NCBI GenBank assembly: GCA_902626365.1
Contig: CACOFE010000004.1
Coordinates: 14,267 to 78,266, forward strand
DNA length: 64,000 nucleotides
From: an uncultured Bacteroidota bacterium
Lineage (GTDB): Bacteria > Bacteroidota > Bacteroidia > Flavobacteriales > Flavobacteriaceae
Direction: 5' to 3'
Shown here: positions 3,891 to 64,000 of the stretch, piece by piece
Numbering within the stretch: the first letter of the stretch is position 1
Layout of the letters: each line of letters starts with the position of its first letter
Made by a program: the position numbers and the translations under genes
The notes under the pieces: generated by a model
Told to the model about the DNA's origin: nothing
The model's database searches: none
What the model saw: only the letters and a program-made list of their open reading frames with translations

Positions 3891-3892
3891 TA

Positions 3893-5395
3893 ATGCTAAA
3901 GCATGCCTTATTAAAAATAGCCTCAAGGTTCGCAAAGAACCAAGTTTATAATTGGGCAAATAAGCCAATTGTAACTCAAGAAAACCAATTCAACTATTTA
4001 ATTAAAAAAGCTCGTAATACTAAATTTGGCAAGAATCATGGGTTTTCGGAAATATCAAATTATCAAGAATTTCAGAAGAGGGTACCCATAAGAGATTATG
4101 AGGGACTGAGAGAATACTTTGAGAAAGTTAAATCTGGGGAGAAGGATATTTTATGGCCTGGAAAACCAATTTATCTTGCTTTAACTTCCGGTACGACCTC
4201 GGGCGCAAAATATATTCCCATCACAAGGGAAAGCCTACCAAACCATTTAAACGGAGCGAAAAACGCTTTATTGATTTATGTTGCAGAAACTAATAAAACA
4301 AGCTTTGTCAACGGTAAATATATTTTTGTTCAAGGCAGCCCAACCCTACAAGACATTTCAGGAATATTAAGCGGTAGACTTTCAGGAATTTCAGCTCACC
4401 ATGTTCCGTTTTACATGAAAAGCAATATGCTTCCATCATGGGATACAAATATCATTGAAGACTGGGAAAAAAAGGTTGAAAATATAGTTAAAGAAACTAT
4501 TACCCAAGACATGACAATTATTAGTGGAATCCCCTCATGGCTACAAATGTATTTTGAAAAAATTGTTCAAGAAACCAACAAACAAATTTCAGAAGTATTC
4601 CCAAACTTTAGTCTTTTAATTTATGGAGGAGTTAATTTCAAACCATATAAAAAAAAGTTCTTTTCTCTAATTGGAAAGGAAGTTGACAGTATTGAGATTT
4701 TTCCTGCAAGTGAGGGTTTTTTTGCCTTTCAAGATAAGCAAGACAGTAACGACCTTCTTCTAATTTTGAATGCCGGAATTTTTTATGAGTTTATTAATGT
4801 TGAGGATTTTAGAGAGAATAGACTAGAAAGAATATCACTTCAAAATGTAAAAAAGGATATAAATTATGTTATGATTATTTCTAGCTCTGCAGGATTGTGG
4901 GGATATAATACAGGCGACACAGTAAAGTTTACAAGCATAAGCCCTTATAGAATTATTGTTAGTGGAAGACTTAAACAAAGCCTATCTGCTTTTGGAGAAC
5001 ATGTAATTGTTAAGGAGGTTGAACAGGCAATAGAACAGGCAATGTTAAAAACTGGGAATATAGTTGTTGAGTTTACAGTAGCCCCCAGATTTAAATCAAA
5101 ATCTTTACCAGCATGTCACGAATGGTTTATTGAATTTGAAGGAAATGTGGTTGAAATCAATAATTTTAAAAGCTTATTAGATTACGAGCTTCAAAAACAA
5201 AACAAATATTATAAAGACTTAATAGAAGGAAAAATAATAGAGAAACCAGTAATAAGCAAAATTATAAAAGGGGGTTTCAAAAAGTATATGAGTAGTATAG
5301 GAAAATTAGGAGGACAAAATAAAGTTCCAAAAATTGCTGATAATAGAGAAATTGCCGACAGGTTAAAAAAACTTAATCTAATCGAGTCAATCTAA
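3893..5395 (+). CDS. GH3 family (auxin-responsive-promoter-like) adenylating enzyme
   Basis: About 500 aa. AMP-binding type loop LTSGTTSGAKYIP. The overall layout is typical of the GH3 proteins common in Flavobacteriia. Confidence 0.8.
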   Translation: MLKHALLKIASRFAKNQVYNWANKPIVTQENQFNYLIKKARNTKFGKNHGFSEISNYQEFQKRVPIRDYEGLREYFEKVKSGEKDILWPGKPIYLALTSGTTSGAKYIPITRESLPNHLNGAKNALLIYVAETNKTSFVNGKYIFVQGSPTLQDISGILSGRLSGISAHHVPFYMKSNMLPSWDTNIIEDWEKKVENIVKETITQDMTIISGIPSWLQMYFEKIVQETNKQISEVFPNFSLLIYGGVNFKPYKKKFFSLIGKEVDSIEIFPASEGFFAFQDKQDSNDLLLILNAGIFYEFINVEDFRENRLERISLQNVKKDINYVMIISSSAGLWGYNTGDTVKFTSISPYRIIVSGRLKQSLSAFGEHVIVKEVEQAIEQAMLKTGNIVVEFTVAPRFKSKSLPACHEWFIEFEGNVVEINNFKSLLDYELQKQNKYYKDLIEGKIIEKPVISKIIKGGFKKYMSSIGKLGGQNKVPKIADNREIADRLKKLNLIESI

Positions 5396-29056: not shown

Positions 29057-29812
29057 ATGAAAAAAATTATTCTTTTGCTTTCCGTTTTCTTTTTAAGCTC
29101 ATGTTCTTTGTTTTATAATGCATCAAAAAAAAATAATGAAAGCACCAGAAAGTTTACACCAAAAAAATCTATACGTAATGCCAATAATAATCTTAATAGT
29201 ATAGAGTATATTCAAGCAAAAGCTAAGGTTTCATTTAGAGATAATAATAAAATAAAATCAAACACTATAACCATGCGGATTTCAGCTAATGAAAAGATAT
29301 GGATTAATGCATCGCTTGGAGCCGCTAGGATACTAATTGATAATGATTCGATAAAGTATTATAATAAAATTGAAAAGAATTACTTTACATCTGATATTAA
29401 TTATATAAACGATAAAATTGGCTTTGATTCAAATTTCGAAATATTTCAAAACCTAATATTAGGTATTTTAATTCATAAATTTGACCCCTCCTCTTTATAT
29501 AAAAAAACAGCAAATAGCTATATTTTTAGAGACGATAAATTCACTATCAATTCTAAAGTAGTTCAGTCTACTGTTTCCATCAGCCCCTCCAACTTCAGAG
29601 TTCTCAAACACTCTTTTAAAGATCAAAATAATTTTTTTGAAGTATCATATGACGACTATACTATAATCGATGATCAAATTTTACCCACAAAAATCCGTTT
29701 TTCTAATAATGGATTAGAAAACCTATATATTGAGATTAAGTCTATTTCTTCTCTAGAAAAAATTAATATTCCCTTTAGGATACCTAAAAATTATAAGCGC
29801 ATTAAATTATAA
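29057..29812 (+). CDS. lipoprotein of unknown function (DUF4292/LolB-like from memory, unverified)
   Basis: Lipobox FFLSSC|S. 251 aa. Confidence 0.6.
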   Translation: MKKIILLLSVFFLSSCSLFYNASKKNNESTRKFTPKKSIRNANNNLNSIEYIQAKAKVSFRDNNKIKSNTITMRISANEKIWINASLGAARILIDNDSIKYYNKIEKNYFTSDINYINDKIGFDSNFEIFQNLILGILIHKFDPSSLYKKTANSYIFRDDKFTINSKVVQSTVSISPSNFRVLKHSFKDQNNFFEVSYDDYTIIDDQILPTKIRFSNNGLENLYIEIKSISSLEKINIPFRIPKNYKRIKL

Positions 29813-53423: not shown

Positions 53424-54164
53424 ATGGGTTGGTTTTATAATTTACTATTCCTTTGGATATTTATAGGGCTATGTACATTTATATATTTAATTTTCTCAAA
53501 AACTATTGCTCCTTACGGAAGACATTCAAATTCTAAATGGGGAATTACTATTGATAATAGGTTGGGCTGGTTTTGGATGGAATTACCTGCTTTGGTTTTA
53601 ATGCCAGTAATAGTTTTAATTTCTCCTGTTCAAAAAAATGAAATCATAATATTAATACTTTCATTATGGATTTTACATTATTTCTATAGAACGATTTTAT
53701 TTCCAATTAAGTTAAAGACTAAAGGAAAAAAAATGCCTTTAGTAATTGTAATTAGTGCATTCATCTTTAATTTATTTAATGGTTTTTTTGTTGGATATGA
53801 GATAGGAAATATATCACAACTTGATTTTGGAATTAACACATTAATTGGACTAATTATCTTTTTTACCGGCATGTATATTAACAGATCTTCAGATAATAAA
53901 TTAATATTATTACGTAAAGAAAACAAAGAATATCAAATTCCTCAAGGGGGAATGTTTAAATATATTTCATGCCCAAATCATTTTGGAGAAATTATTGAGT
54001 GGTTTGGATTCGCAATTATTGTGTTTAATTTAGGTGCTTTGAGTTTTGCGTTTTGGACTGCATTTAATCTGATTCCAAGAGCCATGAATCACCATAATTG
54101 GTATAAAAAATCCTTTGTAGAATACCCAAAAGACCGAAAAGCTGTAATTCCCTTTTTATTTTAA
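53424..54164 (+). CDS. 3-oxo-5-alpha-steroid 4-dehydrogenase / DUF1295-type membrane reductase
   Basis: Polytopic. C-terminal CPNHFGEIIEWFGF motif. Confidence 0.7.
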   Translation: MGWFYNLLFLWIFIGLCTFIYLIFSKTIAPYGRHSNSKWGITIDNRLGWFWMELPALVLMPVIVLISPVQKNEIIILILSLWILHYFYRTILFPIKLKTKGKKMPLVIVISAFIFNLFNGFFVGYEIGNISQLDFGINTLIGLIIFFTGMYINRSSDNKLILLRKENKEYQIPQGGMFKYISCPNHFGEIIEWFGFAIIVFNLGALSFAFWTAFNLIPRAMNHHNWYKKSFVEYPKDRKAVIPFLF

Positions 54165-54168
54165 ATTA

Positions 54169-55287
54169 TTATAAATCAACAATCGATTTATAGCTGGTTT
54201 TATCTGTATCACCTTCAGTATTAAATATTAAAATTCTAGATTTAGAATTTAAACCAATGTGTTCATTTAATTTTGATAATGCAGGATCTTTAATGCATTT
54301 CATAAGACCAGCAAGACCTGCTGCTCCTGATTCTCCTGAAATAATTCTTGCATCATTCTCATTTGGTTTATATAATGTTCTCATTGCATCTTTAACATCA
54401 TCATCGGAAATTGTAAGAACTGCATCACAACCTTTTTTGATGATTTCCCAAGCACTTTTTGAAGGAATTCCACAATTTAAACCTGCCATAATTGTTTTAA
54501 AACTACCTTTTGGTGAAACTCTTTCATTTTGCTTAAACGAGCTTAGTATTCCAGCAGCTTCTTGTGGCTCTATTAAAACTATTTTTGGTTTATTTTTTTC
54601 GTATCTATTTAAATAATACCATATACAAGATGCTGGCCATGAACCTACTCCACATTGAAGAAATATAACATCCACTTTAGGCTTATCAAATAAATTAATT
54701 GAGTCTTCCATTTCTTTGAAATGAGTTAAATAGCCTGACATTATTAAGGCTGGAATTTTTTCATATCCATCCCATGAAGTGTCCTGAACAAGCATCCAAT
54801 TGTTTAAATTACTTTGTTCTGCAGCGTAATTACATGTTTGCTCATAATTCATATTAAGCTGTATAACCTCTCCTCCAAATTGTGCAATTGCATCAATTCT
54901 TTCAGCAGTTGTATCTTTTGGAACATAAACTACAGACTTTTTTTTATTTATTGAGGCAGACCAGGCTACTGCTTTTCCATGATTACCGTCAGTTGCCGTG
55001 CAAAACACTGATATTTCAGGGTAATCCATTAATAATTTTTTTATCGCATAAGAAGCTCCAAGTCCTTTGAAAGCATTTAAATTGAATCTTGTTGACTCAT
55101 CCTTTAAATGTATACTTCGACAACCAAGACTGGCTGATAAACTTTTTAGTTCAAATAAGTGACTAACAGAGTAGTTAGGTAATGTTTTATGAAATTCTAA
55201 AGAATCACTCTCTGATAATATTTGTTCTGTTAAATTATTATCTCTTTTATTATTCGGAATATTTAAAAAAAACTCCATTATAGTCAA
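54169..55287 (-). CDS. fold-type II PLP enzyme, diaminopropionate ammonia-lyase-like
   Basis: PLP-lysine region NAFKGLGASYA and a Gly-rich loop. About 370 aa with the N-terminal extension typical of DAP ammonia-lyases. The subfamily call is from memory. Confidence 0.65.
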   Translation of the reverse strand: MTIMEFFLNIPNNKRDNNLTEQILSESDSLEFHKTLPNYSVSHLFELKSLSASLGCRSIHLKDESTRFNLNAFKGLGASYAIKKLLMDYPEISVFCTATDGNHGKAVAWSASINKKKSVVYVPKDTTAERIDAIAQFGGEVIQLNMNYEQTCNYAAEQSNLNNWMLVQDTSWDGYEKIPALIMSGYLTHFKEMEDSINLFDKPKVDVIFLQCGVGSWPASCIWYYLNRYEKNKPKIVLIEPQEAAGILSSFKQNERVSPKGSFKTIMAGLNCGIPSKSAWEIIKKGCDAVLTISDDDVKDAMRTLYKPNENDARIISGESGAAGLAGLMKCIKDPALSKLNEHIGLNSKSRILIFNTEGDTDKTSYKSIVDL

Positions 55288-55332
55288 ATTATATTTGATA
55301 TTAAAATTAAATTAAATTTTAAAAATATTATC

Positions 55333-55340
55333 TATATTTG
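55333..55340 (+). promoter_or_regulatory. candidate -7 box (TATATTTG) for tRNA-Asn
   Basis: Exact TAnnTTTG, 20 nt upstream of tRNA base 1. A second identical octamer lies at 55290-55297. Confidence 0.4.
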
Positions 55341-55359
55341 CCCACACTGAAAAGTAAAT

Positions 55360-55433
55360 TCCTCCTTAGCTCAGTTGGTTAGAGCATCTGACTGTTAATC
55401 AGAGGGTCCTTGGTTCGAGCCCAAGAGGGGGAG
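55360..55433 (+). tRNA. tRNA-Asn (anticodon GTT)
   Basis: Cloverleaf folded by hand. Acceptor TCCTCCT/AGGGGGA, D stem GCTC/GAGC, anticodon stem TCTGA/TCAGA with loop CTGTTAA, T stem CTTGG/CCAAG with loop TTCGAGC, discriminator G. CCA is not fully encoded. Confidence 0.95.
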
Positions 55434-55465
55434 CAAGCGAAACCGCTACACTACACAGAATAAAG

Positions 55466-55493
55466 CCTTCGAGAAATCGGAGGTTTCTTTTTT
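55466..55493 (+). terminator. rho-independent terminator of tRNA-Asn
   Basis: CCTTCGA-GAAA-TCGGAGG forms a 7-bp stem (one G-U pair) with a GAAA tetraloop, followed by TTTCTTTTTT. Confidence 0.7.
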
Positions 55494-55510
55494 AATAGTT
55501 ACAAGTTAAA
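55491..55510 (-). repeat. degenerate, shortened copy of junction element R3 abutting the tRNA terminator
   Basis: tttaatagttacaagttaaa compared with gtttaatgtatctacaagttagttaaa at 58468. It is followed at 55524-55560 by the same GGCARYTATAT / AAAAAGTGGMAACT motifs that follow the 58468 copy. Confidence 0.5.
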
Positions 55511-55523
55511 GGTACAATTTTTT

Positions 55524-55545
55524 GGCAGTTATATGGCAGTCCTTA
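55524..55545. repeat. 11-bp phased direct repeat (GGCAGTTATAT GGCAGTCCTTA)
   Basis: Related to GGAAACTATAT GGCAACTATAT GGCGC at 58499-58525. Both lie just outside an R3 copy. Confidence 0.5.
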
Positions 55546-55616
55546 TAAAAAGTGGCAACTCATTTGGGTCTCCAAAACAATAATAAAAATTTATTAATTA
55601 ATTTTAGTATGTGAAA

Positions 55617-55799
55617 CTATTTATTCTTCCGCTCATTCTTCCGCTCAATATTAAAAAAATACACTTGACCTAAATGTCCTATAGCTGCAATACCATGACC
55701 ATATTTATAATCAATAAAAATTACTGAAAGCCATCCTCCCATAGCTAGTAAAGAAAAAATAAACAGTAAAGTTTTTTGAGCAGGAGTTAAACTTTTCAT
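55617..55799 (-). CDS. small 2-TM membrane protein with a basic tail, unknown function
   Basis: 60 aa. An R3 element lies directly upstream. The C-terminal ERKNERKNK is encoded by a 12-nt tandem duplication. Confidence 0.55.
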   Translation of the reverse strand: MKSLTPAQKTLLFIFSLLAMGGWLSVIFIDYKYGHGIAAIGHLGQVYFFNIERKNERKNK

Positions 55800-55810
55800 T
55801 ATAATCCGTT

Positions 55811-55841
55811 GTTTAATATATCTACAAGTTAATTAAAAAGT
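55811..55841 (-). repeat. junction element R3, copy 1 (31 nt)
   Basis: gtttaatatatctacaagttaattaaaaagt, 29/31 identical to 58468-58498. It ends 11 nt upstream of the ATG at 55799. The next 15 nt (tgtttacggtttatt) resemble the inner part of R2. Confidence 0.8.
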
Positions 55842-55870
55842 TGTTTACGGTTTATTGTATATTGGTTTTT

Positions 55871-56797
55871 TTATCCTCCAAGATTGAAATCATCTGATGG
55901 GATACCTTTAAAATATCGAGGAATCCCTGGAAAATCATCAGTTATTATGTAGTAATATATTCCATCTGGATATTCAGGAGTTTTCCCTTCTCGACCATTG
56001 GCCTCGTCAAGTGAACCCAATTCACTTATGTATTCGTAGTCATTTACATAAACTCCGTTATATTCATCGCAGGGAGCAGATATTCCATCTCCTGGTCTAA
56101 AACCTGTTTTTAACCTATAACTCGTTGTCATTTCTATTATAGAAGATGTTTCATCAAAAGGGTCAGAAAAGGCATATTTGTAGTAAATTGGAAAACCATC
56201 AGCTGCATATCCAATTAAATTCATTGTATTTGAAGACAGGCTATCTAAGTAACTAATTGGTGCTCCGTGATAATGATATTGACCAGATGGTTGAACGTGA
56301 CCATTATTACAATCTAATCCTAATGGTGTATTTGTTGCTTCTAAATTCCAATCCCAATTTGCATTTGGACTATCAAGTCCCTCGTGTGGAAAAGGTTCAG
56401 CAGCTACTGGGTCCAACTCTATACCGTTTAACATTATACCAAATGAATAATTTGGCCCATTTGAACCTTGTAAAGGAATTAAACTTTGAGCAATGACAGG
56501 ACTAATAGGTAAATTATAAACGAGGTTCTGCTCAGAAATTGAATGCGGATTTAATGCTCCCTGAACATTACCAAATAGACCAACCATATGATTAGGAATA
56601 CTATTTGAGGATATTATTCTTGAATTTTCTGTAATATTATGGCTGTATGATGTTTCAATTGATAAAGACACATTACAATCCCCTCTGGACTGACTGAAAA
56701 TTTGGTCAGAGATGCAGGGATTAACAATCGTTTGGCCTTCATCATCGCTACAACCAAAGACAAGTGGAATAAATACTAATAGTATTAGCTTTTTCAT
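55871..56797 (-). CDS. YHYH-domain lipoprotein
   Basis: Lipobox LVFGC|SDD and the eponymous GQYHYHG motif. Carries the shared MKKLILL head. Confidence 0.8.
   Translation of the reverse strand: MKKLILLVFIPLVFGCSDDEGQTIVNPCISDQIFSQSRGDCNVSLSIETSYSHNITENSRIISSNSIPNHMVGLFGNVQGALNPHSISEQNLVYNLPISPVIAQSLIPLQGSNGPNYSFGIMLNGIELDPVAAEPFPHEGLDSPNANWDWNLEATNTPLGLDCNNGHVQPSGQYHYHGAPISYLDSLSSNTMNLIGYAADGFPIYYKYAFSDPFDETSSIIEMTTSYRLKTGFRPGDGISAPCDEYNGVYVNDYEYISELGSLDEANGREGKTPEYPDGIYYYIITDDFPGIPRYFKGIPSDDFNLGG
56778..56797 (-). repeat. signal-peptide head repeat, copy 1 (intact, YHYH gene)
   Basis: The plus strand reads aatagtattagctttttcat, i.e. ATGAAAAAGCTAATACTATT on the minus strand. Similarity to the 63369-63405 copy extends to 37 nt (35/37). 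Confidence 0.9.
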
Positions 56798-56817
56798 ATC
56801 GCGTGTTGCTCTATAGA

Positions 56818-57303
56818 TTAATAGTCATATTCTACTGCTTGACCTTGAACCCCAATTGACCAGTGAATTTGAACAACCTTCCATTCTCCATTAATTTTTT
56901 TTATCACCCCACTGTTTCTAACATTATTAATCTCTCCCGAATCTTCACCAACTGTGAAAGTGAAATCTAAAAGCTGTGTGTAGGACGCCATATTTCCACC
57001 ATCACTCATTATAATATTTAAATCTCTGGTTTCAAACTTAGGGTTTTTGATTGCCAGTTGTCCAACTATTGAAGGTTCAATTTCACTCCAACCACTCAAG
57101 TATTCTGCTTCGTCTGTTCCGATTAAAACTGCATCATCAGAAAACGTATTTTTCGCCTGTTCTAGACTGCTATTTGTAAAAAAATCAAATTGACTTGAAA
57201 TGAAACTACTTGCTTCATCCAATGTTTTTTCTGGATTAGGGTTTTGCACATTACAACTGTATAATAATGAGGTAATTAATGTAAAATATATTATTCTTTT
57301 CAT
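56818..57303 (-). CDS. NTF2/SnoaL-like (DUF4440-type) lipoprotein
   Basis: Lipobox LLYSC|N. About 140 aa mature protein with the cone-shaped alpha+beta pattern ending in W..VQIHWS. Fold call from sequence pattern only. Confidence 0.55.
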   Translation of the reverse strand: MKRIIYFTLITSLLYSCNVQNPNPEKTLDEASSFISSQFDFFTNSSLEQAKNTFSDDAVLIGTDEAEYLSGWSEIEPSIVGQLAIKNPKFETRDLNIIMSDGGNMASYTQLLDFTFTVGEDSGEINNVRNSGVIKKINGEWKVVQIHWSIGVQGQAVEYDY

Positions 57304-57345
57304 ATTGTTAATTTTAAATATTTATAATTTTTATTTCTTTTAAAG

Positions 57346-57398
57346 ATAGTAAGTTGTTTAGGGTTTGTCAAGTAAGAAACGAGGATATTGATATGTCG
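57346..57398. repeat. junction element R2, copy A (53 nt)
   Basis: atagtaagttgtttagggtttgtcaagtaagaaacgaggatattgatatgtcg, 51/53 identical to 61902-61954. It lies in a divergent spacer between a minus-strand lipoprotein gene and a plus-strand membrane-protein gene. Confidence 0.9.
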
Positions 57399-57460
57399 TA
57401 TGTTGAACTATAAATTATTATGGTACATATTACGTAATACACCTTAAACAAAGTATACGT

Positions 57461-57697
57461 ATGTATTTCTGGTATATAATTTGTATTCGCAATATCACAA
57501 AAACATCATTGATGTACAGTTTATTAAATATTGGCAGATTATATTTAGTTTTGGGTTTTATTTCCATACTGGTTTATGTAAATATTCCAGAAGAAATGAA
57601 TAATTCCACAATGGCAGTATGGATTCTTGGACTTAGTGCAATTTATTTTGTTTTAGGCATAAGAAGACTTATAAGGCACTATAAGGAAAATAAATAA
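57461..57697 (+). CDS. small 2-TM membrane protein (likely start at the internal Met, 57512)
   Basis: The hydrophobic hairpin begins at MYSLLNIGRLYLVLGF. Basic C-tail RHYKENK. Confidence 0.5.
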   Translation: MYFWYIICIRNITKTSLMYSLLNIGRLYLVLGFISILVYVNIPEEMNNSTMAVWILGLSAIYFVLGIRRLIRHYKENK

Positions 57698-57726
57698 CTT
57701 ATATATATCATTTTCATTCTTCAAAA

Positions 57727-57780
57727 TTATCTCAGACAAATACCATTAGAATAAATAATAATAGTATTAGCTTTTTTCAT
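57727..57780 (-). pseudogene. frameshifted/truncated remnant of the lipoprotein head
   Basis: ATGAAAAAAGCTAATACTATTATTATTTATTC has one extra A compared with the intact heads. The corrected frame reads MKKLILLLFILMVFV then stops. No gene body follows. Confidence 0.7.
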
Positions 57781-58112
57781 ATCGATTGTTGTAAAATTAT
57801 TATTCCTAGAATAAGGTAGGCCAGAGCAGGTAGAATTTCAGAAATATTATCTTTTATTTTAATTCTAACACAAACAGCTACAACCATCATAATTATTAAA
57901 ATTACTGAGCTGATAATTAGTATTAAATTTAATTTTAAACCAATCAGTATTCCTATACCGCAGGCTAGTTGAACACTGCCAATCTGCTTTCTTCTTTTTC
58001 CCAACCCCCATCTTTCAAATTCCAAAATCATTTTATTTGAAATAAAAGAATTTATACCATAAGCAATAAAGGATATGGCTGTGAAAACTGTAATTATATT
58101 ATATACGTCCAT
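57777..58112 (-). CDS. DoxX-like small polytopic membrane protein (second of a pair)
   Basis: About 111 aa from MDVYNIITVF, with 4 TM segments. Its ATG overlaps the upstream stop (TAATG). Its own TGA overlaps the ATG of the head remnant (ATGA). The listed ORF extends to 58127. Confidence 0.6.
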   Translation of the reverse strand: MDVYNIITVFTAISFIAYGINSFISNKMILEFERWGLGKRRKQIGSVQLACGIGILIGLKLNLILIISSVILIIMMVVAVCVRIKIKDNISEILPALAYLILGIIILQQSI

Positions 58113-58456
58113 TAAATTAAGCCACAATTAAACGAAGCAATAAATAAAGACATAATCAAAAATATTAGCGATGGAACAAACTTAATAAAAGGATTTTTAA
58201 CTTTTATATGAGAAAGTTGCGCACACAACATGAAGAAAGCCATTGATAGGGACGCATAAATTGTAATTTCATTATACCATAACCCAAGTATTAATAATGT
58301 TGAAGTTGATGTTTTGGCAACCCCTACAAAATTTCTTAATAAGTCTGAATATCCATAATGTTTAAATTCCACTACAATATTGTCATATCTGAAAATCCAA
58401 ACAATAAGAACAGAGATTGCGACAATCAGTTGAAATGCTGTTGAAATATTTTCCAT
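58112..58456 (-). CDS. DoxX-like small polytopic membrane protein (first of a pair)
   Basis: 114 aa with 4 TM segments. An R3 element lies directly upstream. Confidence 0.6.
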   Translation of the reverse strand: MENISTAFQLIVAISVLIVWIFRYDNIVVEFKHYGYSDLLRNFVGVAKTSTSTLLILGLWYNEITIYASLSMAFFMLCAQLSHIKVKNPFIKFVPSLIFLIMSLFIASFNCGLI

Positions 58457-58467
58457 AATTCTAATTT

Positions 58468-58498
58468 GTTTAATGTATCTACAAGTTAGTTAAAAAGT
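58468..58498 (-). repeat. junction element R3, copy 2 (31 nt)
   Basis: gtttaatgtatctacaagttagttaaaaagt ends 11 nt upstream of the ATG at 58456. Confidence 0.8.
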
Positions 58499-58525
58499 GG
58501 AAACTATATGGCAACTATATGGCGC
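58499..58525. repeat. 11-bp phased direct repeats (GGAAACTATAT GGCAACTATAT GGCGC)
   Basis: Tandem units with an 11-bp period, adjacent to R3 copy 2. Confidence 0.6.
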
Positions 58526-58549
58526 TCTTTAGCTTTTTTATATCGTTTC

Positions 58550-59830
58550 TTACTCTTTTATTATTTTATGTGTTGAGGTGTTTATACCGTCTGTAAGATT
58601 GAGAATATATCCCCCTTTCTCTAAACTGGAGATATCAATTTTTGTTGTGAAATATCCTTTCATTACTAGTCTTCCAAATATATCAAAAACTTCTGCTTCT
58701 AATCTTAAATTACTATTTGTGTAAATATAATTTGAAGTGGGGTTTGGGTGTAATTTAATCTCAAAATTTTGCAGCCCATCACTTGACATTGGATTGCATT
58801 CAATTTCATTACTTGAATTTTCATATAATTGACCATTTAAGACATACCATTCTTGCCATTCACCTCCAGTTCCTGTGTTCCAGGAATTAAGATCAAAAGA
58901 GTTCTCACCATTCACAGTACCTTTAATATTATAAACTTTTATTGCTTGATAGTCTGCATTCCACTCTAATGGCACATTCGGCGAGGAAATTTCAGGATAA
59001 TTATTCGAAATCTCACAATTTACCTGTAAAAAATATGCGTTATCATCATAATTTGGAAACTCTCCGAAAACCCTAGCGTTTCCGTTTTGGTCAATACAAA
59101 CAGCCGTATACTCATCACAAGCTACACCAAATACAGGAGTTCCATAGTCTGTCAGTATTCGTGACATAAAAACAATGTGACGTCCCTTTCTTTCAGGATC
59201 GTCATAGTGTTGATCAGTAATTACATTAGATAAATAATCAACCTCTAAAAAAGGTAAATTATCAACGGTAACTGAGACATTATAAGGGTTAGACAATGCT
59301 TCACTTGATGTAACTGTCCCATTTTGGGCAGTAAAGTAATATTCACCCATTATTGCCATACCTGCGCTAGTACCACCCACTGCAATATTTCTTTCAGAAA
59401 TAGCTTGATTAATTAATGTATTGAGTTGAGTGCCTCTAAAATAATTAACATAATTCCATTGATTTCCCCCTGCAAACCATATAGCCTCAGCATTCAAAAC
59501 TTTATTGTGAATATATGACTCATCTGCAGCAGAACTATTATTAAGCACTATGGTTTCAACAGAATTAACATTTACACCCAATTCGCTAAATAAATAATTA
59601 TTATAACCATCGCTTCCAGATGTTCTCAAAACTAATATATCACCACCATTAGAGCGCTCCAAAAACCAAGTCATTGCATTATCGTCCTCTGAAGCACCTC
59701 CCATAAGACAAACACCTCCATTGGTTTCTCGATAAACATCATTATTATTACCAGTGAAATATGAAGTGTAGTTTTGGCTAATAGAATCAATGGATATAAT
59801 TAATAAGATTAATAGTATTAGCTTTTTCAT
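58550..59830 (-). CDS. peptidase S51 / cyanophycinase-like hydrolase with a T9SS C-terminal sorting domain
   Basis: Shared head signal peptide. Nucleophile elbow VGGTSAGMAIMG. The last 70 aa or so (LHPNPTSNYIY...FDIFGRLV...GGYILNL) look like a Por/T9SS CTD. Confidence 0.75.
   Translation of the reverse strand: MKKLILLILLIISIDSISQNYTSYFTGNNNDVYRETNGGVCLMGGASEDDNAMTWFLERSNGGDILVLRTSGSDGYNNYLFSELGVNVNSVETIVLNNSSAADESYIHNKVLNAEAIWFAGGNQWNYVNYFRGTQLNTLINQAISERNIAVGGTSAGMAIMGEYYFTAQNGTVTSSEALSNPYNVSVTVDNLPFLEVDYLSNVITDQHYDDPERKGRHIVFMSRILTDYGTPVFGVACDEYTAVCIDQNGNARVFGEFPNYDDNAYFLQVNCEISNNYPEISSPNVPLEWNADYQAIKVYNIKGTVNGENSFDLNSWNTGTGGEWQEWYVLNGQLYENSSNEIECNPMSSDGLQNFEIKLHPNPTSNYIYTNSNLRLEAEVFDIFGRLVMKGYFTTKIDISSLEKGGYILNLTDGINTSTHKIIKE
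59811..59830 (-). repeat. signal-peptide head repeat, copy 3 (intact, S51 gene)
   Basis: Exact 20-mer aatagtattagctttttcat. Confidence 0.9.
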
Positions 59831-59843
59831 AAATTAAGATGGT

Positions 59844-60398
59844 TTATTTGACGGCTTTAATATATTCTATTTCTAAATTAAATCTACCTTCCTGTTTGTC
59901 AGAAATATGAAGGCTTAACGAATTTACTTTCTCAAGATCCAAGTCTGGATAGTTTGAATATGTATATCCCCTCCAAGTTGCTCTAAAATCTTCAACTGGA
60001 AGTTTTACAATTATCCATTCATTTTTTTGAGACTTAAAATCACAGGAATAGGAAGCTCGAATATTTTTTTGCCTTAATCTAAGTTTATAATTATTCCCAT
60101 CCCCCTTTAATTTAATCTCAAAAAACTTTATACCATTGAGATTATGTTTTCCAATATCTAGCCTTGACGAAGCAAATCCCCCGTTATTTTCAAGAGATAA
60201 ATTACCTCTAAAAATTAAATGTTTTTTGTCATTAATTAGAACAGTAGAGTTGGAAATACCCCCCATAACATCATCGTTTACGATGGTCCATTTTTTTATT
60301 CCGATTTCTTTAGATGGATTAATCAAATCAAGACTCTGGGAGTTCATAGGGGCTTCAAAAATTAAAGATACAAATAGTAATAGTATTAGCTTTTTCAT
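59844..60398 (-). CDS. CIA30 (complex I intermediate-associated protein 30-like) domain secreted protein
   Basis: Shared head. W.IVNDDVMGGISNS...GGFAS pattern typical of CIA30 domains. Confidence 0.75.
   Translation of the reverse strand: MKKLILLLFVSLIFEAPMNSQSLDLINPSKEIGIKKWTIVNDDVMGGISNSTVLINDKKHLIFRGNLSLENNGGFASSRLDIGKHNLNGIKFFEIKLKGDGNNYKLRLRQKNIRASYSCDFKSQKNEWIIVKLPVEDFRATWRGYTYSNYPDLDLEKVNSLSLHISDKQEGRFNLEIEYIKAVK
60379..60398 (-). repeat. signal-peptide head repeat, copy 4 (intact, CIA30 gene)
   Basis: Exact 20-mer. The upstream leader TAGAGCAACATACGAT (60399-60414) matches TAGAGCAACACGCGAT at 56798-56813. Confidence 0.9.
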
Positions 60399-60411
60399 AT
60401 CGTATGTTGCT

Positions 60412-60657
60412 CTAATATAATAGACTTTTTAAATAGTCAACAATCATATCATAATAACCATTAACATTAAAATAAAAAAGTATAAAAACCCCAATAATAA
60501 TCCCCATGACAGCACCAATTCTTTCTCCTCTCTTAATGTTAATTTCTTTACTTTCAAGCATCATATATTTTGGAATGAATGGACGTATTATTAATACTAA
60601 TAATGCAAAAATGCCTATTACACAGCAAATTATAAATATGTAATCAATGATTTCCAC
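60412..60657 (-). CDS. small 2-TM membrane protein, unknown function
   Basis: 81 aa with two hydrophobic helices. Confidence 0.5.
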   Translation of the reverse strand: MEIIDYIFIICCVIGIFALLVLIIRPFIPKYMMLESKEINIKRGERIGAVMGIIIGVFILFYFNVNGYYDMIVDYLKSLLY

Positions 60658-60688
60658 CTATCAATAAAATTAATATAAATTAATCAGA

Positions 60689-60721
60689 TTAATTAAATAA
60701 TAATAGTATTAGCTTTTTCAT
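60689..60721 (-). pseudogene. decapitated lipoprotein head (MKKLILLLFN then stop)
   Basis: The exact 20-mer head (60702-60721) is followed by a stop after 10 codons, with no gene body. Confidence 0.7.
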
Positions 60722-60846
60722 TTTTTCAAATATTTATATATTAAAAATGCTAAACAAAGCCCAAGCCCAAGCACAATAACAACAAATGAATTATCACTGA
60801 GTAGAGAATCTTTAAGTGTATCCGTATGTAAAAGAGTTTTGTTCAA
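60718..60846 (-). CDS. possible 42-aa single-TM ORF (TTG start) ending LIYKYLKK
   Basis: Below the ORF-track cut-off. Its TGA overlaps the ATG of the head remnant (ATGA). The tail resembles three other small ORFs in the island. Confidence 0.3.
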   Translation of the reverse strand: MNKTLLHTDTLKDSLLSDNSFVVIVLGLGLCLAFLIYKYLKK

Positions 60847-60850
60847 GATA

Positions 60851-60955
60851 TTATTTAACAGCTTTAATATATTTTATTACTCAGCCAAACAACTTTCCAA
60901 ACAAGCATAAAAAATATCTGACTACTGATCTGATTTGTGTAACTATTTTTTTCAT
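60851..60955 (-). pseudogene. fragmentary cassette: head-like start (MKKIVTQ..., 24 codons) plus a CIA30-like 3' tail remnant
   Basis: The leader CCAACATACGATATG is conserved. After an in-frame TGA the frame reads VIKYIKAVK-stop, compared with EIEYIKAVK-stop at the end of the CIA30 gene. The 13-mer GCTTTAATATATT is shared at 59856 and 60861. Confidence 0.45.
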
Positions 60956-60987
60956 ATCGTATGTTGGTTTACTCTAATGTTATAACA

Positions 60988-61191
60988 TTATTTCTTTTTT
61001 AGATTTTTCACTCCTAAATATGTCATATAAAAAAACAAGATAGCTAATGGCGTCTCAGTATATTCATTAAGAAATTCCGTTTCTTTAATTACATTACAAT
61101 AAATGTCATATCCAATCAACCCAACAGATCCAAAATATAAAACTGCGGGGAGATATTTAACCGAGTATATTAGTTTTTCGATTTTATCCAT
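60988..61191 (-). CDS. small 2-TM membrane protein with a basic tail (NLKKK)
   Basis: 67 aa. It starts 4 nt after the stop of the head remnant. Confidence 0.5.
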   Translation of the reverse strand: MDKIEKLIYSVKYLPAVLYFGSVGLIGYDIYCNVIKETEFLNEYTETPLAILFFYMTYLGVKNLKKK

Positions 61192-61195
61192 ATTA

Positions 61196-61216
61196 TCAAA
61201 GTATTAGCTTTTTCAT
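61196..61216 (-). pseudogene. decapitated lipoprotein head (MKKLIL then stop)
   Basis: gtattagctttttcat (16 nt of the head), then a stop at codon 7. Confidence 0.65.
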
Positions 61217-61419
61217 TTTTTTCTTTTGAAAAAATCATATTTTATTAAAACCAATATTATAATAAAGAAAAGCAATGAAAAAAAACATAAACCAATAAAA
61301 TTAAAAATGGTTTCTCCCATGTCTTGAGTGCTAAAACTAGCTGAAGTTAAAATAACTAATGCCATCCATAATGAAGCAATTGAAAGTATAAATAAAAACC
61401 AAGAAAAATACTTATTCAT
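61213..61419 (-). CDS. small 2-TM membrane protein ending LIKYDFFKRKK
   Basis: 68 aa. Its TGA overlaps the ATG of the head remnant (ATGA). Confidence 0.55.
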   Translation of the reverse strand: MNKYFSWFLFILSIASLWMALVILTSASFSTQDMGETIFNFIGLCFFSLLFFIIILVLIKYDFFKRKK

Positions 61420-61449
61420 AACTATAAACGTTTAATTAACTAAAAATTA

Positions 61450-61875
61450 TTAATCAAATATTACTAATTTCAATTTTAAACCCTTATAAGTTTCTGCAAT
61501 TCCTTCAACAGAAGTTTCACTTTGCAAAGAAATTCTAACAAAACCTTCCCCATAACTTAAATAAGAAAATGTTGTATCTCCAATTTCTTTCCATACAGGA
61601 TTGTATTGAGGAAACTGACTCCATCTTTGAGGTCTTTCTTCGGTTGCTGCTCTTTCAATATATGCAAGCACAGCGCCCCCTTCCATTACATCATCATCAA
61701 TTTCGGGAACTTTAATTTCAAAGTTTCCATATTGTTTGTCATCACTAAGGCTTGTTAAATCTCCAAACTCAACAATTACAACTTCAAGTTTTTTTCCAAC
61801 TTCAAATTCTTTTTCAATCTCAATACAAGAAAAAAAGAATAAAGGGATAAATAATAATAAAAATAAATTTTTCAT
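61450..61875 (-). CDS. lipoprotein of unknown function
   Basis: MKNLFLLLFIPLFFFSC| signal, similar at the protein level to the shared head but diverged in DNA. R3 (partial) and R2 lie directly upstream. Confidence 0.65.
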   Translation of the reverse strand: MKNLFLLLFIPLFFFSCIEIEKEFEVGKKLEVVIVEFGDLTSLSDDKQYGNFEIKVPEIDDDVMEGGAVLAYIERAATEERPQRWSQFPQYNPVWKEIGDTTFSYLSYGEGFVRISLQSETSVEGIAETYKGLKLKLVIFD

Positions 61876-61883
61876 AATGTTTA

Positions 61884-61900
61884 GTTTAATGTATCTACAA
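61884..61900 (-). repeat. junction element R3, copy 3 (17-nt core gtttaatgtatctacaa)
   Basis: Identical to the first 17 nt of copy 2 and contiguous with R2 copy B. Confidence 0.75.
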
Positions 61901-61901
61901 T

Positions 61902-61954
61902 ATAGTAAGTTGTTTATGGTTAGTCAAGTAAGAAACGAGGATATTGATATGTCG
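61902..61954. repeat. junction element R2, copy B (53 nt)
   Basis: 51/53 identical to 57346-57398. Again in a divergent spacer between a minus-strand lipoprotein gene and a plus-strand membrane-protein gene. Confidence 0.9.
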
Positions 61955-62002
61955 GCATTAATTAAAATTCACTATTTTAACGAACAACTATTGCATTGAT
62001 AT

Positions 62003-62452
62003 TTGAAAATGTTAAAAATACCCCCACCTCTATTAGTTCTGGTTTTAGTTATTTCTAATTACTTTTCATCTAAAAAAATTGATTTAATTCTCCTGCCAAA
62101 TCAAAACTTAATTTCATTTATTATACTTTTAGTCGGAGTGCTTATTTTAATTAATCCAATTCTTAAGTTTATAAAATCAAAAACTACAATTGACCCGATA
62201 AAGTTTAAAAAAGTTAACAAACTCATAACCTCAGGAATCTATAAATATTCAAGAAACCCTATGTATTTAGGTCTGTTGATGATAGTCATATCAACATCAA
62301 TATTCTATTTGAATATTTTCTCACTTATAACACCTATCCTTTTTGTTTGTTGGATAAATAGATTTCAAATTAAAAGAGAAGAGATTTTTCTCGCCGAAAA
62401 ATTTGGTAAAGAATACATGTTATATAAGACTAAAACAAGAAGATGGATTTAG
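62003..62452 (+). CDS. isoprenylcysteine carboxyl / phospholipid methyltransferase family membrane protein
   Basis: GIYKYSRNPMYLG motif and 4 TM segments. TTG start at 62003 or ATG at 62009. Confidence 0.75.
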   Translation: MKMLKIPPPLLVLVLVISNYFSSKKIDLILLPNQNLISFIILLVGVLILINPILKFIKSKTTIDPIKFKKVNKLITSGIYKYSRNPMYLGLLMIVISTSIFYLNIFSLITPILFVCWINRFQIKREEIFLAEKFGKEYMLYKTKTRRWI

Positions 62453-62585
62453 TGAGACTAATTTTTTTACTTTCATATATATTTTTCCTCTTTTAGCCAA
62501 GAAAATACTCCAGAACTGTCTGTAGTATGTTGCCCTAAACGTTAAAAATTAACTATATTGTTAAACTAATTTTTAAACTTTTATT

Positions 62586-63092
62586 ATGAAAAATATTACA
62601 TACTTATTTACTTTATGTCTGATCTTAACTTCTTGTGGTCAAGAATGTGAGGTTGAGTCCAATGGATTTGCCCCTATGGAGGGTCAAACAGTTATGATGG
62701 GAAGTCAAGCATCAGTTGATGTTGTTATTGCAATGGATAAGGTTTGGGCAGAAAGAGATTATGATGCTTTAAAATCTTTTATTGCAGATGGGGCTAGTCT
62801 ACAATTTTATAATGGTACAACTGCAAGTAATGGAGATGAGTTTGTTGCGATTATTGAGAAACAATATCAGGATGGACTTGCAGAAGGAAATTCTGGGGAA
62901 TGGGTATTTAGATACGCATTTTCTATTAAGCCCTCCAAACCTGAGGGAACAGATCATCCTAACAACAGAGGAGAATGGGTTAATGCTGGGTTTGCAGGAT
63001 CTGATGGAAGTAACTATAATGAATGGTATCAGGTTGAGAATGGAAAAATTATTTCTTGGTCACAAACCAGAGGCGTAACTTCTGCTGAATAA
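62586..63092 (+). CDS. NTF2/SnoaL-like lipoprotein
   Basis: Lipobox LILTSC|G. About 150 aa mature alpha+beta protein ending NEWYQVENGKIISW. A degenerate R2/R3-type leader lies upstream in the same relative orientation (62520-62565). Confidence 0.55.
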   Translation: MKNITYLFTLCLILTSCGQECEVESNGFAPMEGQTVMMGSQASVDVVIAMDKVWAERDYDALKSFIADGASLQFYNGTTASNGDEFVAIIEKQYQDGLAEGNSGEWVFRYAFSIKPSKPEGTDHPNNRGEWVNAGFAGSDGSNYNEWYQVENGKIISWSQTRGVTSAE

Positions 63093-63100
63093 ATTTTTTA

Positions 63101-63147
63101 TTAACTCTATACTAATAAAAATATTTATGATATTAGTATAGAGTTAA
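63101..63147. terminator. perfect 17-bp inverted repeat between convergent genes (bidirectional terminator candidate)
   Basis: TTAACTCTATACTAATA, a 13-nt loop, then TATTAGTATAGAGTTAA. T-rich on both sides. Confidence 0.55.
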
Positions 63148-63177
63148 TATTTTAATTTAAGTATTTAAAGAATTGGT

Positions 63178-63405
63178 TTAGTTGCAGGGTCCATCTTCAT
63201 ATGCAATAACCCCATAAAAATTAAAAGCCTCACAGCTATTTCCATAGGTGTTTCCGTCACATCCGCATACAGGCTGATATTCTTCAGTGCAAGCATAATC
63301 TAAATTGATTAATGACTCATCAACACACATATTTGGCACATCCTCATTATCACTACTACAATTAAATACAAGTGGAATAAATAGTAATAGTATTAACTTT
63401 TTCAT
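63178..63405 (-). CDS. Kazal-type protease-inhibitor-domain lipoprotein
   Basis: Shared head and lipobox LVFNC|SSD. Kazal signature C..EYQPVCGCDGNTYGNSCEA....C. Confidence 0.75.
   Translation of the reverse strand: MKKLILLLFIPLVFNCSSDNEDVPNMCVDESLINLDYACTEEYQPVCGCDGNTYGNSCEAFNFYGVIAYEDGPCN
63386..63405 (-). repeat. signal-peptide head repeat, copy 7 (intact, Kazal gene; 1 mismatch)
   Basis: aatagtattaactttttcat. The 37-nt stretch 63369-63405 matches 56761-56797 at 35/37. Confidence 0.85.
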
Positions 63406-63491
63406 TTTTTAAATTGAATATAGATTAAACATAAAGTTACTATTATCGAGCAAACAATTATAACTTTATTATACCACTTTAACTTTTTCAT
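63402..63491 (-). CDS. possible 29-aa single-TM ORF ending LIYIQFKK
   Basis: ATGAAAAAGTTAAAG start (head-like). ATGA overlaps at both ends. Below the ORF-track cut-off. Confidence 0.35.
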   Translation of the reverse strand: MKKLKWYNKVIIVCSIIVTLCLIYIQFKK

Positions 63492-63664
63492 TTCTTTTTC
63501 TCTTTTTTGAATTTATAAAGTAAATAGATAAGAAATATAATAAATACTACAAGTAGAGTAATTTCTAAATTTTTTTCTGCAAATTTTCTTGCTGCACCAA
63601 TTATAGGTAAATCATCAATAAATTTAAGCAGATATTTAAGAAGTTTTAATAAGAACTTCCCCAT
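63488..63664 (-). CDS. 58-aa membrane-anchored ORF ending LIYLLYKFKKEKKK
   Basis: Translated by hand. Its TGA overlaps the next ATG, and it starts 1 nt after the upstream stop. Confidence 0.45.
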   Translation of the reverse strand: MGKFLLKLLKYLLKFIDDLPIIGAARKFAEKNLEITLLVVFIIFLIYLLYKFKKEKKK

Positions 63665-63665
63665 A

Positions 63666-64000
63666 TTATTTAAATTTTCCTTTTACTTCTGTGAAAAATA
63701 AAAATGCTATAATTACACCATCTAAAAGGATCAATGCATTCTCACTAAATTCTAAAAAAGGGGTAAAAGGCGTTACACTCGTGAGAATATATGAATCATC
63801 TGAAATCACGAAATAACTAATAGCGCCCATTATAAGATAAAATATAAATAACTTTTTACCAATAGGTTTTAGTTTATATAAGAAATACCACATAAAAGGA
63901 ATCAAAATTAAAAGTATAATAAAGAAAATTCCTTCTATTATAGTTGGCTCAGAGTCAACCTCTTCATAAGGAAAATAAGTTTGTTCAACTATGAATAATA
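63666..64000 (-). CDS. membrane protein, 5' end probably beyond the window
   Basis: The frame stays open from 63905 to base 64000 (…EEVDSEPTIIEGIFFIILLILIPFMWYF…). The listed TTG at 63905 may not be the real start. Confidence 0.45.
   Translation of the reverse strand, partial: LFIVEQTYFPYEEVDSEPTIIEGIFFIILLILIPFMWYFLYKLKPIGKKLFIFYLIMGAISYFVISDDSYILTSVTPFTPFLEFSENALILLDGVIIAFLFFTEVKGKFK

Follow-up and report, generated by a model that had tools for sequence, protein, structure and literature searches.

A signal-peptide start shared by unrelated genes in tRNA-linked arrays of marine Flavobacteriales, a probable export module and recombination seam

Introduction

How can one short piece of coding DNA stand, almost letter for letter, at the beginning of genes whose remaining parts are unrelated? 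The question is raised by a 64,000-nucleotide (nt) stretch of an uncultured Bacteroidota bacterium of the Flavobacteriaceae (GenBank assembly GCA_902626365.1, contig CACOFE010000004.1, positions 14,267 to 78,266), hereafter the window. Close to a tRNA-Asn gene, a sequence that encodes the first part of a signal peptide, here called the head, recurs in front of several different gene bodies and also occurs in short copies lacking a body. A first-pass annotation of the window had taken the nucleotide identity of these copies as a sign of recent copying or of recombination, either homologous or site-specific, and the short copies as genes that had lost their bodies. We compared the island with related loci of other genomes and with metagenome contigs. 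At a probability of about 0.68, we favor the reading that the head is a portable start-and-export module that doubles as a seam for homologous recombination.

Results and Discussion

Seven copies of the head in the window

A search of the window that allowed up to three mismatches located ATGAAAAAGCTAATACTATT exactly at 56778-56797, 59811-59830, 60379-60398 and 60702-60721, the four positions given by the first-pass annotation. Near copies lie at 63386-63405 with one mismatch, at 57760-57780 with one extra A, and at 61197-61216 with two mismatches; the first two are as had been described, and the identity of the third covers its first 17 nt rather than 16. All seven are on the minus strand between 56778 and 63405, that is, within 6.6 kb. 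Shuffled sequence gave a mean of 0.09 matches and no shuffle reached seven, so that the seven-copy observation is confirmed as real. Pfam assigns four of the bodies to unrelated families (YHYH, Peptidase_S51, CIA30 and Kazal), in agreement with the earlier claim, and the heads of the YHYH and Kazal genes indeed have 35 of 37 nt in common. The copies at 57780, 60721 and 61216 stop after 17, 10 and 6 codons, respectively, which bears out their description as short.

The head-bearing genes start just past tRNA-Asn, run on the minus strand towards it and extend beyond position 64000. At 57780, 60721, 61216 and 63405, the head start codon forms an ATGA overlap with the stop codon of an open reading frame (ORF) that lies upstream and encodes a small membrane protein. 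The upstream spacer AGAGCAACAYRCGAT is common to the heads at 56797 and 60398 and is partially present at 57780 and 60955. Neither these overlaps nor the spacer, the further head remnant at 58529-58549, the spacer-only copy at 60955 or the diverged head at 61875 (Table 1) figured in the first-pass annotation, which also gave no strand for the copies. Positions 1-54000 have long ORFs without a head copy, which we regard as ordinary core genes; no ATGAAAAAG-type start in the codon series of the head was found there, and the sole comparable signal-peptide start, MKKIILLL at 29057, uses other codons.

The module across marine Flavobacteriales

A scan for the exact 20-mer, with one genome per prokaryotic species, returned 92 stretches. 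Many Bacteroidota, among them Chryseobacterium, Flavobacterium and Alistipes, have single exact copies, and there the sequences diverge right past the 20-mer. Clusters of several copies on one strand were found only in uncultured marine Bacteroidetes of 28-32% GC, both genomes amplified from single cells (SAGs) and genomes assembled from metagenomes (MAGs). The carriers are GORG single-cell genomes (AG-..., AH-...) and MAGs including MED-G13, MED-G59 and NAT90, in all 28 species-representative assemblies. In this clade the conserved unit is longer than the 20-mer, comprising a 13-nt spacer and the head, (a)aaccaacatacgat followed by ATGAAAAAGCTAATACTATTACTATTTATTCCACTTGT, with the peptide MKKLILLLFIPLV. 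Over 111 copies, conservation is 92-100% at positions 0-31, somewhat inflated since these positions were used to find the copies, 59-94% at positions 32-37, and 39-86% at the last ten upstream positions, the flanks being free of that bias. The claim of recent, local copying does not survive these results, since a near-invariant module is found in 28 species-level assemblies and heads within a genome are no more alike than heads of different genomes.

The catalogue assembled from 52 loci and the window holds 163 heads, of which 98 start ORFs of at least 50 amino acids (aa) and 57 are short copies. The 98 ORFs fall into 47 body families without mutual BLASTP relation. Kazal is the most frequent of them, with 10 copies; Pfam matches of the 47 representatives also include CAP, YHYH, CIA30, beta-lactamase, NHL, Fib_succ_major, acetolactate decarboxylase, MORN, alpha/beta hydrolases, TonB_C, rotamase and FG-GAP, among others. 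Divergence of tandem paralogues was ruled out as an origin, the bodies being different folds. Past the shared part, 40 of the 98 proteins continue with a lipobox, often followed by a stretch rich in Ser, Asp and Glu, and 38 with a signal-peptidase-I site of the ..SF(S/G)Q type. The shared part thus corresponds to the n- and h-region of the signal peptide, and the cleavage region belongs to the body.

All heads are co-oriented in each of the 38 loci with more than one head. The cassettes are tightly packed, most of them without a promoter of their own; the commonest spacings from stop codon to ATG are 13, 8 and 11-12 nt, and 36 of the 163 heads overlap the upstream ORF as ATGA.

Full heads of 32-45 nt were also seen as single copies in four loci (L004, L048, L010 and L003) from assemblies of 34-40% GC, namely Ulvibacter-labelled MAGs and a 1.67-Mb Bacteroidota contig. 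These could reflect transfer of head-bearing genes outside the low-GC clade. Some of these higher-GC heads lie directly behind TTGTAAATTGT, which resembles a -7 box, and this suggests leaderless transcripts.

Homology between genomes breaks at heads

BLASTN comparison of 54001-64000 with the other loci gave a patchwork in which alignments begin and end at heads. Over all clade loci, 35% of 1302 internal alignment ends fall within -30 to +60 of a head ATG, compared with 5% of random positions. Counted per site, there are 2.88 alignment ends per head and 0.58 per ordinary ORF start, a fivefold difference. For instance, the alignment of the S51 region with L013 (93.6%) covers 58529-59849 and stops 19 nt upstream of the ATG, and alignments of L068, L021 and L085 at the CIA30 gene end 8-19 nt upstream of its ATG. 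The cassette of the 81-aa ORF aligns with L033, L083, L021 and L029 at 91-96% from head to head (60360/60397 to 60675/60726). Several inter-genome alignments terminate at 58529, the edge of a head remnant that lies directly past the stop codon of the S51 gene and ahead of a promoter-bearing pair of DoxX genes.

The first-pass annotation had predicted that one head would be found joined to different bodies and that segments between heads would be deleted in some genomes, and both are found. In a three-way alignment, L033 consists of the sequence upstream of the head at 61216, one hybrid head, and the sequence downstream of the head at 60721; the head-flanked 495-nt segment 60722-61216 of the window is therefore absent from L033. 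L064 matches the window at 96% through the SnoaL gene, the spacer and the head, and about 50 nt past the ATG the YHYH body is replaced by a body of the 328-aa NHL family.

The SnoaL protein was used as an anchor for a population comparison (homologues P0121-P0128 and their contigs). An identical SnoaL protein, P0127, from independent ocean metagenomes, is followed by the same spacer and head and then by at least four continuations, among them a 261-aa lipoprotein (L110-112), a truncated head and then a NERD protein (L113), and two further signal-peptide continuations (L114, L116). Similarly, an identical P0125 with an identical 38-nt spacer leads into CIA30 (L103-108) or the NHL family (L109). 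The same SnoaL gene, spacer and head thus carry YHYH, NHL-repeat, CIA30, 261-aa lipoprotein and other bodies. Several of the contigs with junction variants are named k119-k147, which we read as an assembly k-mer longer than the repeat of about 55 nt; mis-joining at the repeat is then unlikely for these contigs. A divergent 168-aa gene adjoins SnoaL in L103-L107 and has the same length as the window ORF 62586-63092.

Heads without a body

Among 59 short copies, 15 have a stop codon in ATGA overlap with the start of a downstream ORF that is 25 codons or longer, and 4 more stop within 10 nt of such a start; 14 are within 11-60 nt of one, and 26 are without such an ORF. The bodyless copies of the window had been taken for heads that lost their bodies. 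They lie in stretches that align to other genomes, and two of them are just upstream of small membrane-protein ORFs. The truncated head at 60721 recurs in L033 and lies within the alignments to L021 and L083; that at 61216 lies within alignments of 83-86% to L028 and L032, which span the junction at 61196-61216; and that at 57780 adjoins an alignment to L054, which matches 57308-57776 at 87% and has a comparable 19-codon head remnant at its position 932. Heads also decay at such places. Junctions of the MKFSW family differ among L066, L083 and L017, and the 42-aa ORF of the window has lost its head while relatives in L038, L068 and L077 keep theirs in frame. Judged by these alignments, the bodyless heads are read as old junction scars and not fresh losses.

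A portable module that may double as a seam

The observations can be accommodated if the head acts as a portable 5′ module some 50-55 nt long, in which a short intercistronic spacer (consensus AACCAACATACGAT) is followed by the start codon and by the codons for the n- and h-regions of a signal peptide of the Sec type. It fronts most genes of the co-oriented arrays that make up a hypervariable island 3′ of tRNA-Asn, and a second at tRNA-Ala, in low-GC uncultured marine Flavobacteriales. Such a module would have two functions. It would provide a start site and an export signal for any ORF joined to it, and, as the sole sequence common to all cassettes, it would provide the homology for their exchange. 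Homologous recombination or replication slippage between the direct head repeats could then join, swap, insert and delete cassettes within and between genomes. Truncated heads would be the scars of such exchange, and some may have been retained as mini-ORFs that overlap, with their stop codon, the start of a small membrane-protein ORF downstream. Of this picture, the sequences show the module, how widely and in what orientation it occurs, its fusion to unrelated bodies, the junction variants and the excess of breakpoints at heads; a general rather than site-specific pathway, the cause of the constant synonymous sites and a part for the mini-ORFs in translation are inferred.

Several points weigh against this reading. 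For RecA-dependent exchange, the 38-55 nt common to the heads are short, and recombination is deduced here from comparison of sequences. The inflation of the conservation at positions 0-31 has been mentioned. Not all junctions are at heads: in L120-L131 those downstream of SnoaL lie elsewhere, which indicates that illegitimate events occur too. Some differences in order between SAG or MAG contigs may stem from misassembly at the repeat, and contig ends are where many arrays lie. The far end of the window island is beyond 64000 and may hold a linked recombinase. The cores of heads have a similarity of 0.961 in the same genome and 0.963 in different genomes, a test for genome-specific concerted evolution of the heads having found none, while bodies of one family differ by 10-25%. 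Simple copying fails to explain this pattern, which needs either nucleotide-level selection or very frequent conversion across a clade-wide pool.

What keeps the head constant

The head is written in minority codons. Of the Lys codons in the core genes of the window, 24% are AAG; CTA accounts for 13% of those for Leu and ATA for 33% of those for Ile. Yet AAG and the three CTA codons of the head are 95-100% conserved over all copies. Given the peptide and the window's own usage, the probability of the codon series is about 1e-3 for codons 2-6 and 2.7e-7 for 13 codons, in keeping with the earlier view that the nucleotide identity does not come from a codon or signal preference. Across ten body families, heads are 93% identical and bodies 77%, and codons for the same amino acid are identical in 90% of cases in heads versus 70% in bodies. 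Bodies of one family differ by 10-25%.

These figures lend themselves to the most serious alternative, an unlikely one in our judgment, that a function of the nucleotide sequence or its RNA is the main cause of the identity and that recombination at heads is a by-product. The sequence might be an optimized, G-poor and unstructured start, its slow codons might aid co-translational targeting, or it might be the target of a trans-acting RNA or protein regulator. These Bacteroidetes are largely without Shine-Dalgarno sites. The near-invariance of synonymous sites in 28 assemblies, the lack of any excess of similarity within genomes and the slower divergence of heads than of bodies all fit such a function. 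The consensus spacer and head is essentially unstructured, with a minimum free energy of -0.9 kcal/mol (z = 0.6; reverse strand -4.9 kcal/mol, z = 0.3). The 19 of 59 truncated heads whose stops overlap or lie within 10 nt of a downstream start fit translational coupling, which would give the mini-ORFs a role, and truncated copies gain substitutions, as in the MKFSW junctions and at the diverged start of the 42-aa ORF. On the other hand, further secreted proteins of the same window, such as that starting at 29057, manage with other codons for a similar peptide, so that neither export nor initiation in general depends on the head sequence. Any of many equally unstructured sequences could serve, and identity would still need descent by copying. 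Nor was there an antisense copy, the heads keeping to a single strand both in the window and in each of 38 loci, or a match to any Rfam family anywhere in the island. For the portable module that we favor, the constancy could be due to nucleotide-level selection of one of these kinds or to conversion among the many copies together with cassette exchange, by which the heads would form a single population throughout the clade.

The run of five A residues after the head ATG varies in length. It is A6 at 57780 in the window and at position 45 of L021, and A4 in the CIA30 head of six independent metagenome contigs (L103-L108); these variants put the ATG out of frame with the body. A slippage switch at this run, as in phase variation, was considered and rejected, there being three independent events of plus or minus one nt among about 165 copies.

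Is the head a site-specific recombination site?

A dedicated, integron-like system, with the head as the site, a recombinase encoded elsewhere and cassettes moving as circles, is a further alternative that we consider improbable. The spacer and head would then be the site of a dedicated cassette capture of marine Bacteroidota, an integron analogue inside signal-peptide coding sequence, a proposal to which we give the same low credence. Were it true, each captured ORF would be both translated and exported, and the invariance would reflect recognition by a putative recombinase. Co-oriented, tightly packed and mostly promoterless cassettes bounded by one short site are what such a system would leave, and the head-flanked 495-nt indel, the tRNA genes next to the arrays and a tyrosine integrase gene adjoining a partial tRNA-Asn copy in L040 are consistent with it. 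However, folding of the head element revealed no hairpin and no meaningful dyad symmetry, and an attC-like site or structured RNA element was rejected on that ground. Truncated heads break at nt 12, 17, 18, 20, 23, 27-30 and 36, and in the junction variants divergence begins at differing positions of the head; such variable points fit general recombination. ORF maps, which are not a gene-by-gene scan, showed no integrase-like ORF in 55435-64000 of the window, where 8.5 kb of its island are visible, or in the 16-kb island of AG-470-C08, where the ORFs of integrase size are head-bearing genes and one that starts with an FAD/NAD-binding-like motif. The L040 integrase (Pfam Phage_integrase, 3.8e-14), the only one found, is at an att-type junction of the tRNA and not at a head. 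Among 2.9 million viral contigs, none matched a 26-mer of the head, an argument against carriage by phages. The site-specific half of the earlier proposal thus finds neither a fixed crossover point nor a recombinase inside the arrays examined, and the absence of structure, the variable breaks and the lack of an array integrase or viral match favor general homologous recombination and slippage as the probable pathway.

The S51 start region (59770-59850, minus strand), which has only 20 nt of the head, differs in folding from canonical heads: at -8.7 kcal/mol (z = -2.8) it is more stable than its shuffles, and they are not.

The island at the tRNA genes

ARAGORN and Rfam found tRNA-Asn (GTT) as the only tRNA of the window and no other Rfam family. 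The same tRNA adjoins head arrays in 11 other genomes, and twelve loci are arranged in this way. Arrays sit 3′ of either tRNA-Asn or tRNA-Ala. In each of the 13 tRNA-linked cases checked, namely the window with 10 other loci at tRNA-Asn and 2 at tRNA-Ala, the array is directed towards the tRNA. In AG-470-C08, a 24-kb composite, the 16-kb island lies between core genes and tRNA-Asn. A recurrent breakpoint occurs at about 55493, just past the terminator hairpin of the tRNA. A metagenome scan anchored on the core gene 54169-55287, which flanks the tRNA, recovered no arrays but contigs that stop at the tRNA, and so marked the island boundary. Five of six contigs with the complete core gene end 170-500 nt upstream of the gene. 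Two of them, whose alignment to the window is 100% identical as far as 55454 or 55493, stop or diverge at that point. These ends indicate that the island varies so much in natural populations that assemblies break.

Could the island have been built only by tRNA-targeting integrases that add modules at tRNA-Asn, with the heads as passive features of the cargo? L040 (AG-337-I16, 3569-4865) has a 50-nt 3′ fragment of tRNA-Asn with a 110-nt flank, 100% identical to the window, 76 nt from the integrase gene, and a second partial copy of the tRNA 3′ end and flank lies inside the islands of L075 (2632-2702) and L083 (3539-3637). These fragments imply that integrative elements also accumulate at tRNA-Asn, and the breaks of metagenome contigs right past the tRNA would fit this origin as well. 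As the whole explanation it is nevertheless very improbable. The visible part of the window island, whose distal end lies beyond 64000, contains no second tRNA-flank copy; bodies are swapped directly at heads behind identical upstream cassettes and spacers, with no att repeat nearby; and the density of breakpoints at heads is fivefold that at other gene starts. A codon or signal-peptide preference throughout the lineage, or an assembly artefact, has next to no probability: MKKLILL is a common Bacteroidota start and single 20-mers are widespread, but those hits diverge past the 20-mer while the marine copies are identical for 38 nt and have a common spacer, the codons are minority ones, non-coding truncated copies exist, and the module is present in SAGs, MAGs and independent metagenome assemblies, several of whose contigs are k119-k147.

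Relation to known systems and significance

The erp lipoprotein genes of Borrelia burgdorferi (OspE/F-related) with their upstream homology box (UHB) have an upstream region and leader conserved at the DNA level, and the remainders of their ORFs are of many origins and recombine (PMC10016077). By analogy, and not by homology, this is the closest precedent in kind. Both systems have one DNA-conserved leader on unrelated mature parts, here of 47 body families, and form new leader-body combinations. The erp genes occupy allelic positions on cp32 prophage plasmids, share a promoter/operator and comprise few families in a host-associated spirochaete. Here, by contrast, the arrays are chromosomal, tandem, co-oriented and adjoin tRNA genes in free-living marine Flavobacteriales, with at least 47 body families; the shared upstream part is limited to about 13 nt, numerous truncated copies are interspersed among small ORFs, and there is no viral-contig match.

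Phytoplasma sequence-variable mosaic (SVM) regions are transposon-derived mosaics; unlike in these, the ORF maps of the arrays show no evident ORF of transposase size. The SVM signal motif (PF12113) is a conserved N-terminal signal on otherwise different secreted proteins (PMC8026896). No Pfam N-terminal family, SVM_signal included, matched the head proteins of the window or the 47 representatives.

Integron arrays resemble the present ones in their co-oriented, mostly promoterless cassettes, common short site and content that varies between strains. They differ in that the site here is coding, at the 5′ end of the cassette, unstructured and without a fixed crossover, and no IntI-like gene adjoins the array. 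In Bacteroides shufflons and the vsa genes of Mycoplasma pulmonis, N-termini are swapped through inverted repeats by a site-specific invertase at a single expression site. There, as here, a shared 5′ coding segment permits differing bodies on one start; unlike there, all copies are direct repeats (38 of 38 loci), each with its own start codon. Tycheposons of Prochlorococcus exemplify the tRNA-linked additive flexible islands or integrative elements of marine bacteria (bioRxiv 10.1101/2020.12.28.424599). The present arrays resemble such islands in adjoining a tRNA, in being hypervariable in natural populations and, in some relatives, in having an integrase and partial tRNA repeats. They appear to differ in that the internal seams are signal-peptide heads rather than att repeats, and the visible island of the window is without an integrase or tRNA repeat.

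A literature search, with most subscription journals outside its coverage, found nothing on MKKLILL(LF...) peptide strings or on this phenomenon in marine Flavobacteria. What is described here is a leader-sharing, recombining gene set that takes the form of tandem arrays of secretome cassettes beside tRNA genes and occurs in no fewer than 28 species of free-living marine Flavobacteriales. It suggests a route by which small, streamlined marine bacteria may keep a large and fast-changing surface and secreted repertoire. A standard 5′ module would make bodies exportable and at the same time supply the homology for exchanging them clade-wide. The arrays also explain why metagenome assemblies of these abundant organisms break just past tRNA-Asn, and the head may be viewed as a natural, evolution-tested export tag for Bacteroidota. 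They pose the question of what keeps 38 nt, synonymous sites with minority codons included, constant in 28 or more species when the genes attached to them differ by 10-25%.

Other features of the island

The features of the window island are collected in Table 1.

Table 1. Positions of the tRNA gene, heads, head remnants, genes and cassettes in the window
Feature	Position	Strand	Remarks
tRNA-Asn (GTT)	55360..55434	+	proximal boundary of the variable island; ARAGORN and Rfam
YHYH-domain lipoprotein gene, head-bearing	55871..56797	-	lipobox VFGC, then SDDE; Pfam YHYH 5.8e-57
YHYH head module	56760..56812	-	spacer agagcaacacgcgat, ATG at 56797, MKKLILLVFIPLV
SnoaL_3 lipoprotein cassette	56818..57303	-	own non-head start MKRIIYF...; Pfam
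Decayed head remnant	57727..57792	-	A6 in place of A5, frame shifted; 17 codons; ATG overlaps stop of DoxX ORF 57777-58127
Head remnant	58529..58549	-	gaaacgat ATA AAAAAGCTAA; spacer gaaacgat, then ATA AAA AAG CTA A; repeat families D3, D7
Peptidase_S51 gene	58550..59830	-	C-terminal sorting domain of the type IX secretion system; head identity only in the first 20-21 nt
CIA30 gene and head module	59844..60413	-	gene 59844-60398; 26 nt of head, spacer agagcaacatacgat
81-aa membrane ORF cassette	60412..60657	-	heads at both sides
Truncated head MKKLILLLFN*	60689..60721	-	ATG overlaps stop of 42-aa ORF 60718-60846; also in L033
495-nt segment	60722..61216	-	small ORFs of 42, 24 and 67 aa; direct head repeats at both flanks
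Spacer-only copy	60947..60975	-	agagtaaaccaacatacgat and ATGAAAAAA; precedes 24-codon ORF at 60955; repeat family D3
Truncated head	61196..61216	-	17 nt identical, 6 codons; ATG overlaps stop of 68-aa ORF 61213-61419
141-aa lipoprotein gene	61450..61875	-	diverged head MKNLFLLLFIPLFFFSC; repeat family D1, 67% to reference head
Kazal-type inhibitor lipoprotein gene	63178..63405	-	full head, 1 substitution; ATG overlaps stop of 29-aa ORF 63402-63491
Three small membrane ORFs of 29, 58 and 79 aa	63402..63905	-	overlapping or abutting, upstream of Kazal head

An exact-protein look-up of the CIA30 protein of the window found no match on record. The chains of small hydrophobic ORFs (29-81 aa) at 60412-61419 and 63402-63905 mostly have Lys-rich tails, and their members overlap or abut each other and heads through ATGA; the 67-aa ORF starts 7 nt past the stop of the truncated head 61196-61216. 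Relatives of these ORFs were found in many arrays, and the chain at 63402-63905 aligns at 82-84% to L028, L007 and L038. Pfam gave nothing above threshold for ten small island ORFs, which included the 81-aa ORF and the 63402-63905 chain. A scan for sigma-70 promoters and terminators was uninformative, with counts equal to those of shuffles.

Two further direct repeats, each 82% identical between its copies, occur in the island. One of 89 nt (57310-57398 and 61866-61954) lies upstream of minus-strand lipoprotein genes, SnoaL at 57303 and the 141-aa gene at 61875. Both genes are described as lacking a head, the 141-aa gene having the diverged one only, and each is opposite a plus-strand gene. 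The core of the repeat (57343-57405) recurs with 86-95% identity in at least 10 other loci, and it resembles a shared promoter module for both directions and, in addition, a mosaic seam of a second kind. The other, of 49 nt (55793-55841 and 58450-58498), is found upstream of both the 60-aa ORF (55799) and the DoxX gene (58456), contains CTTGTAGATA(T/C)ATTAAAC, and may be another shared promoter or operator module.

The sequence AAAAAGTGGAAACTATATGGCAACTATATGGCG at 58483-58531, just past the head remnant that follows S51, is 85-90% conserved in L029, L047, L077, L087 and L096, and resembles part of the flank downstream of the tRNA at 55524-55560 (GGCAGTTATATGGCAG...AAAAAGTGGCAAC). Finally, a perfect 19-nt inverted repeat with a 13-nt loop at 63099-63149, between the convergent ORF 62586-63092 (plus strand) and the Kazal gene (minus strand), is probably a bidirectional terminator.

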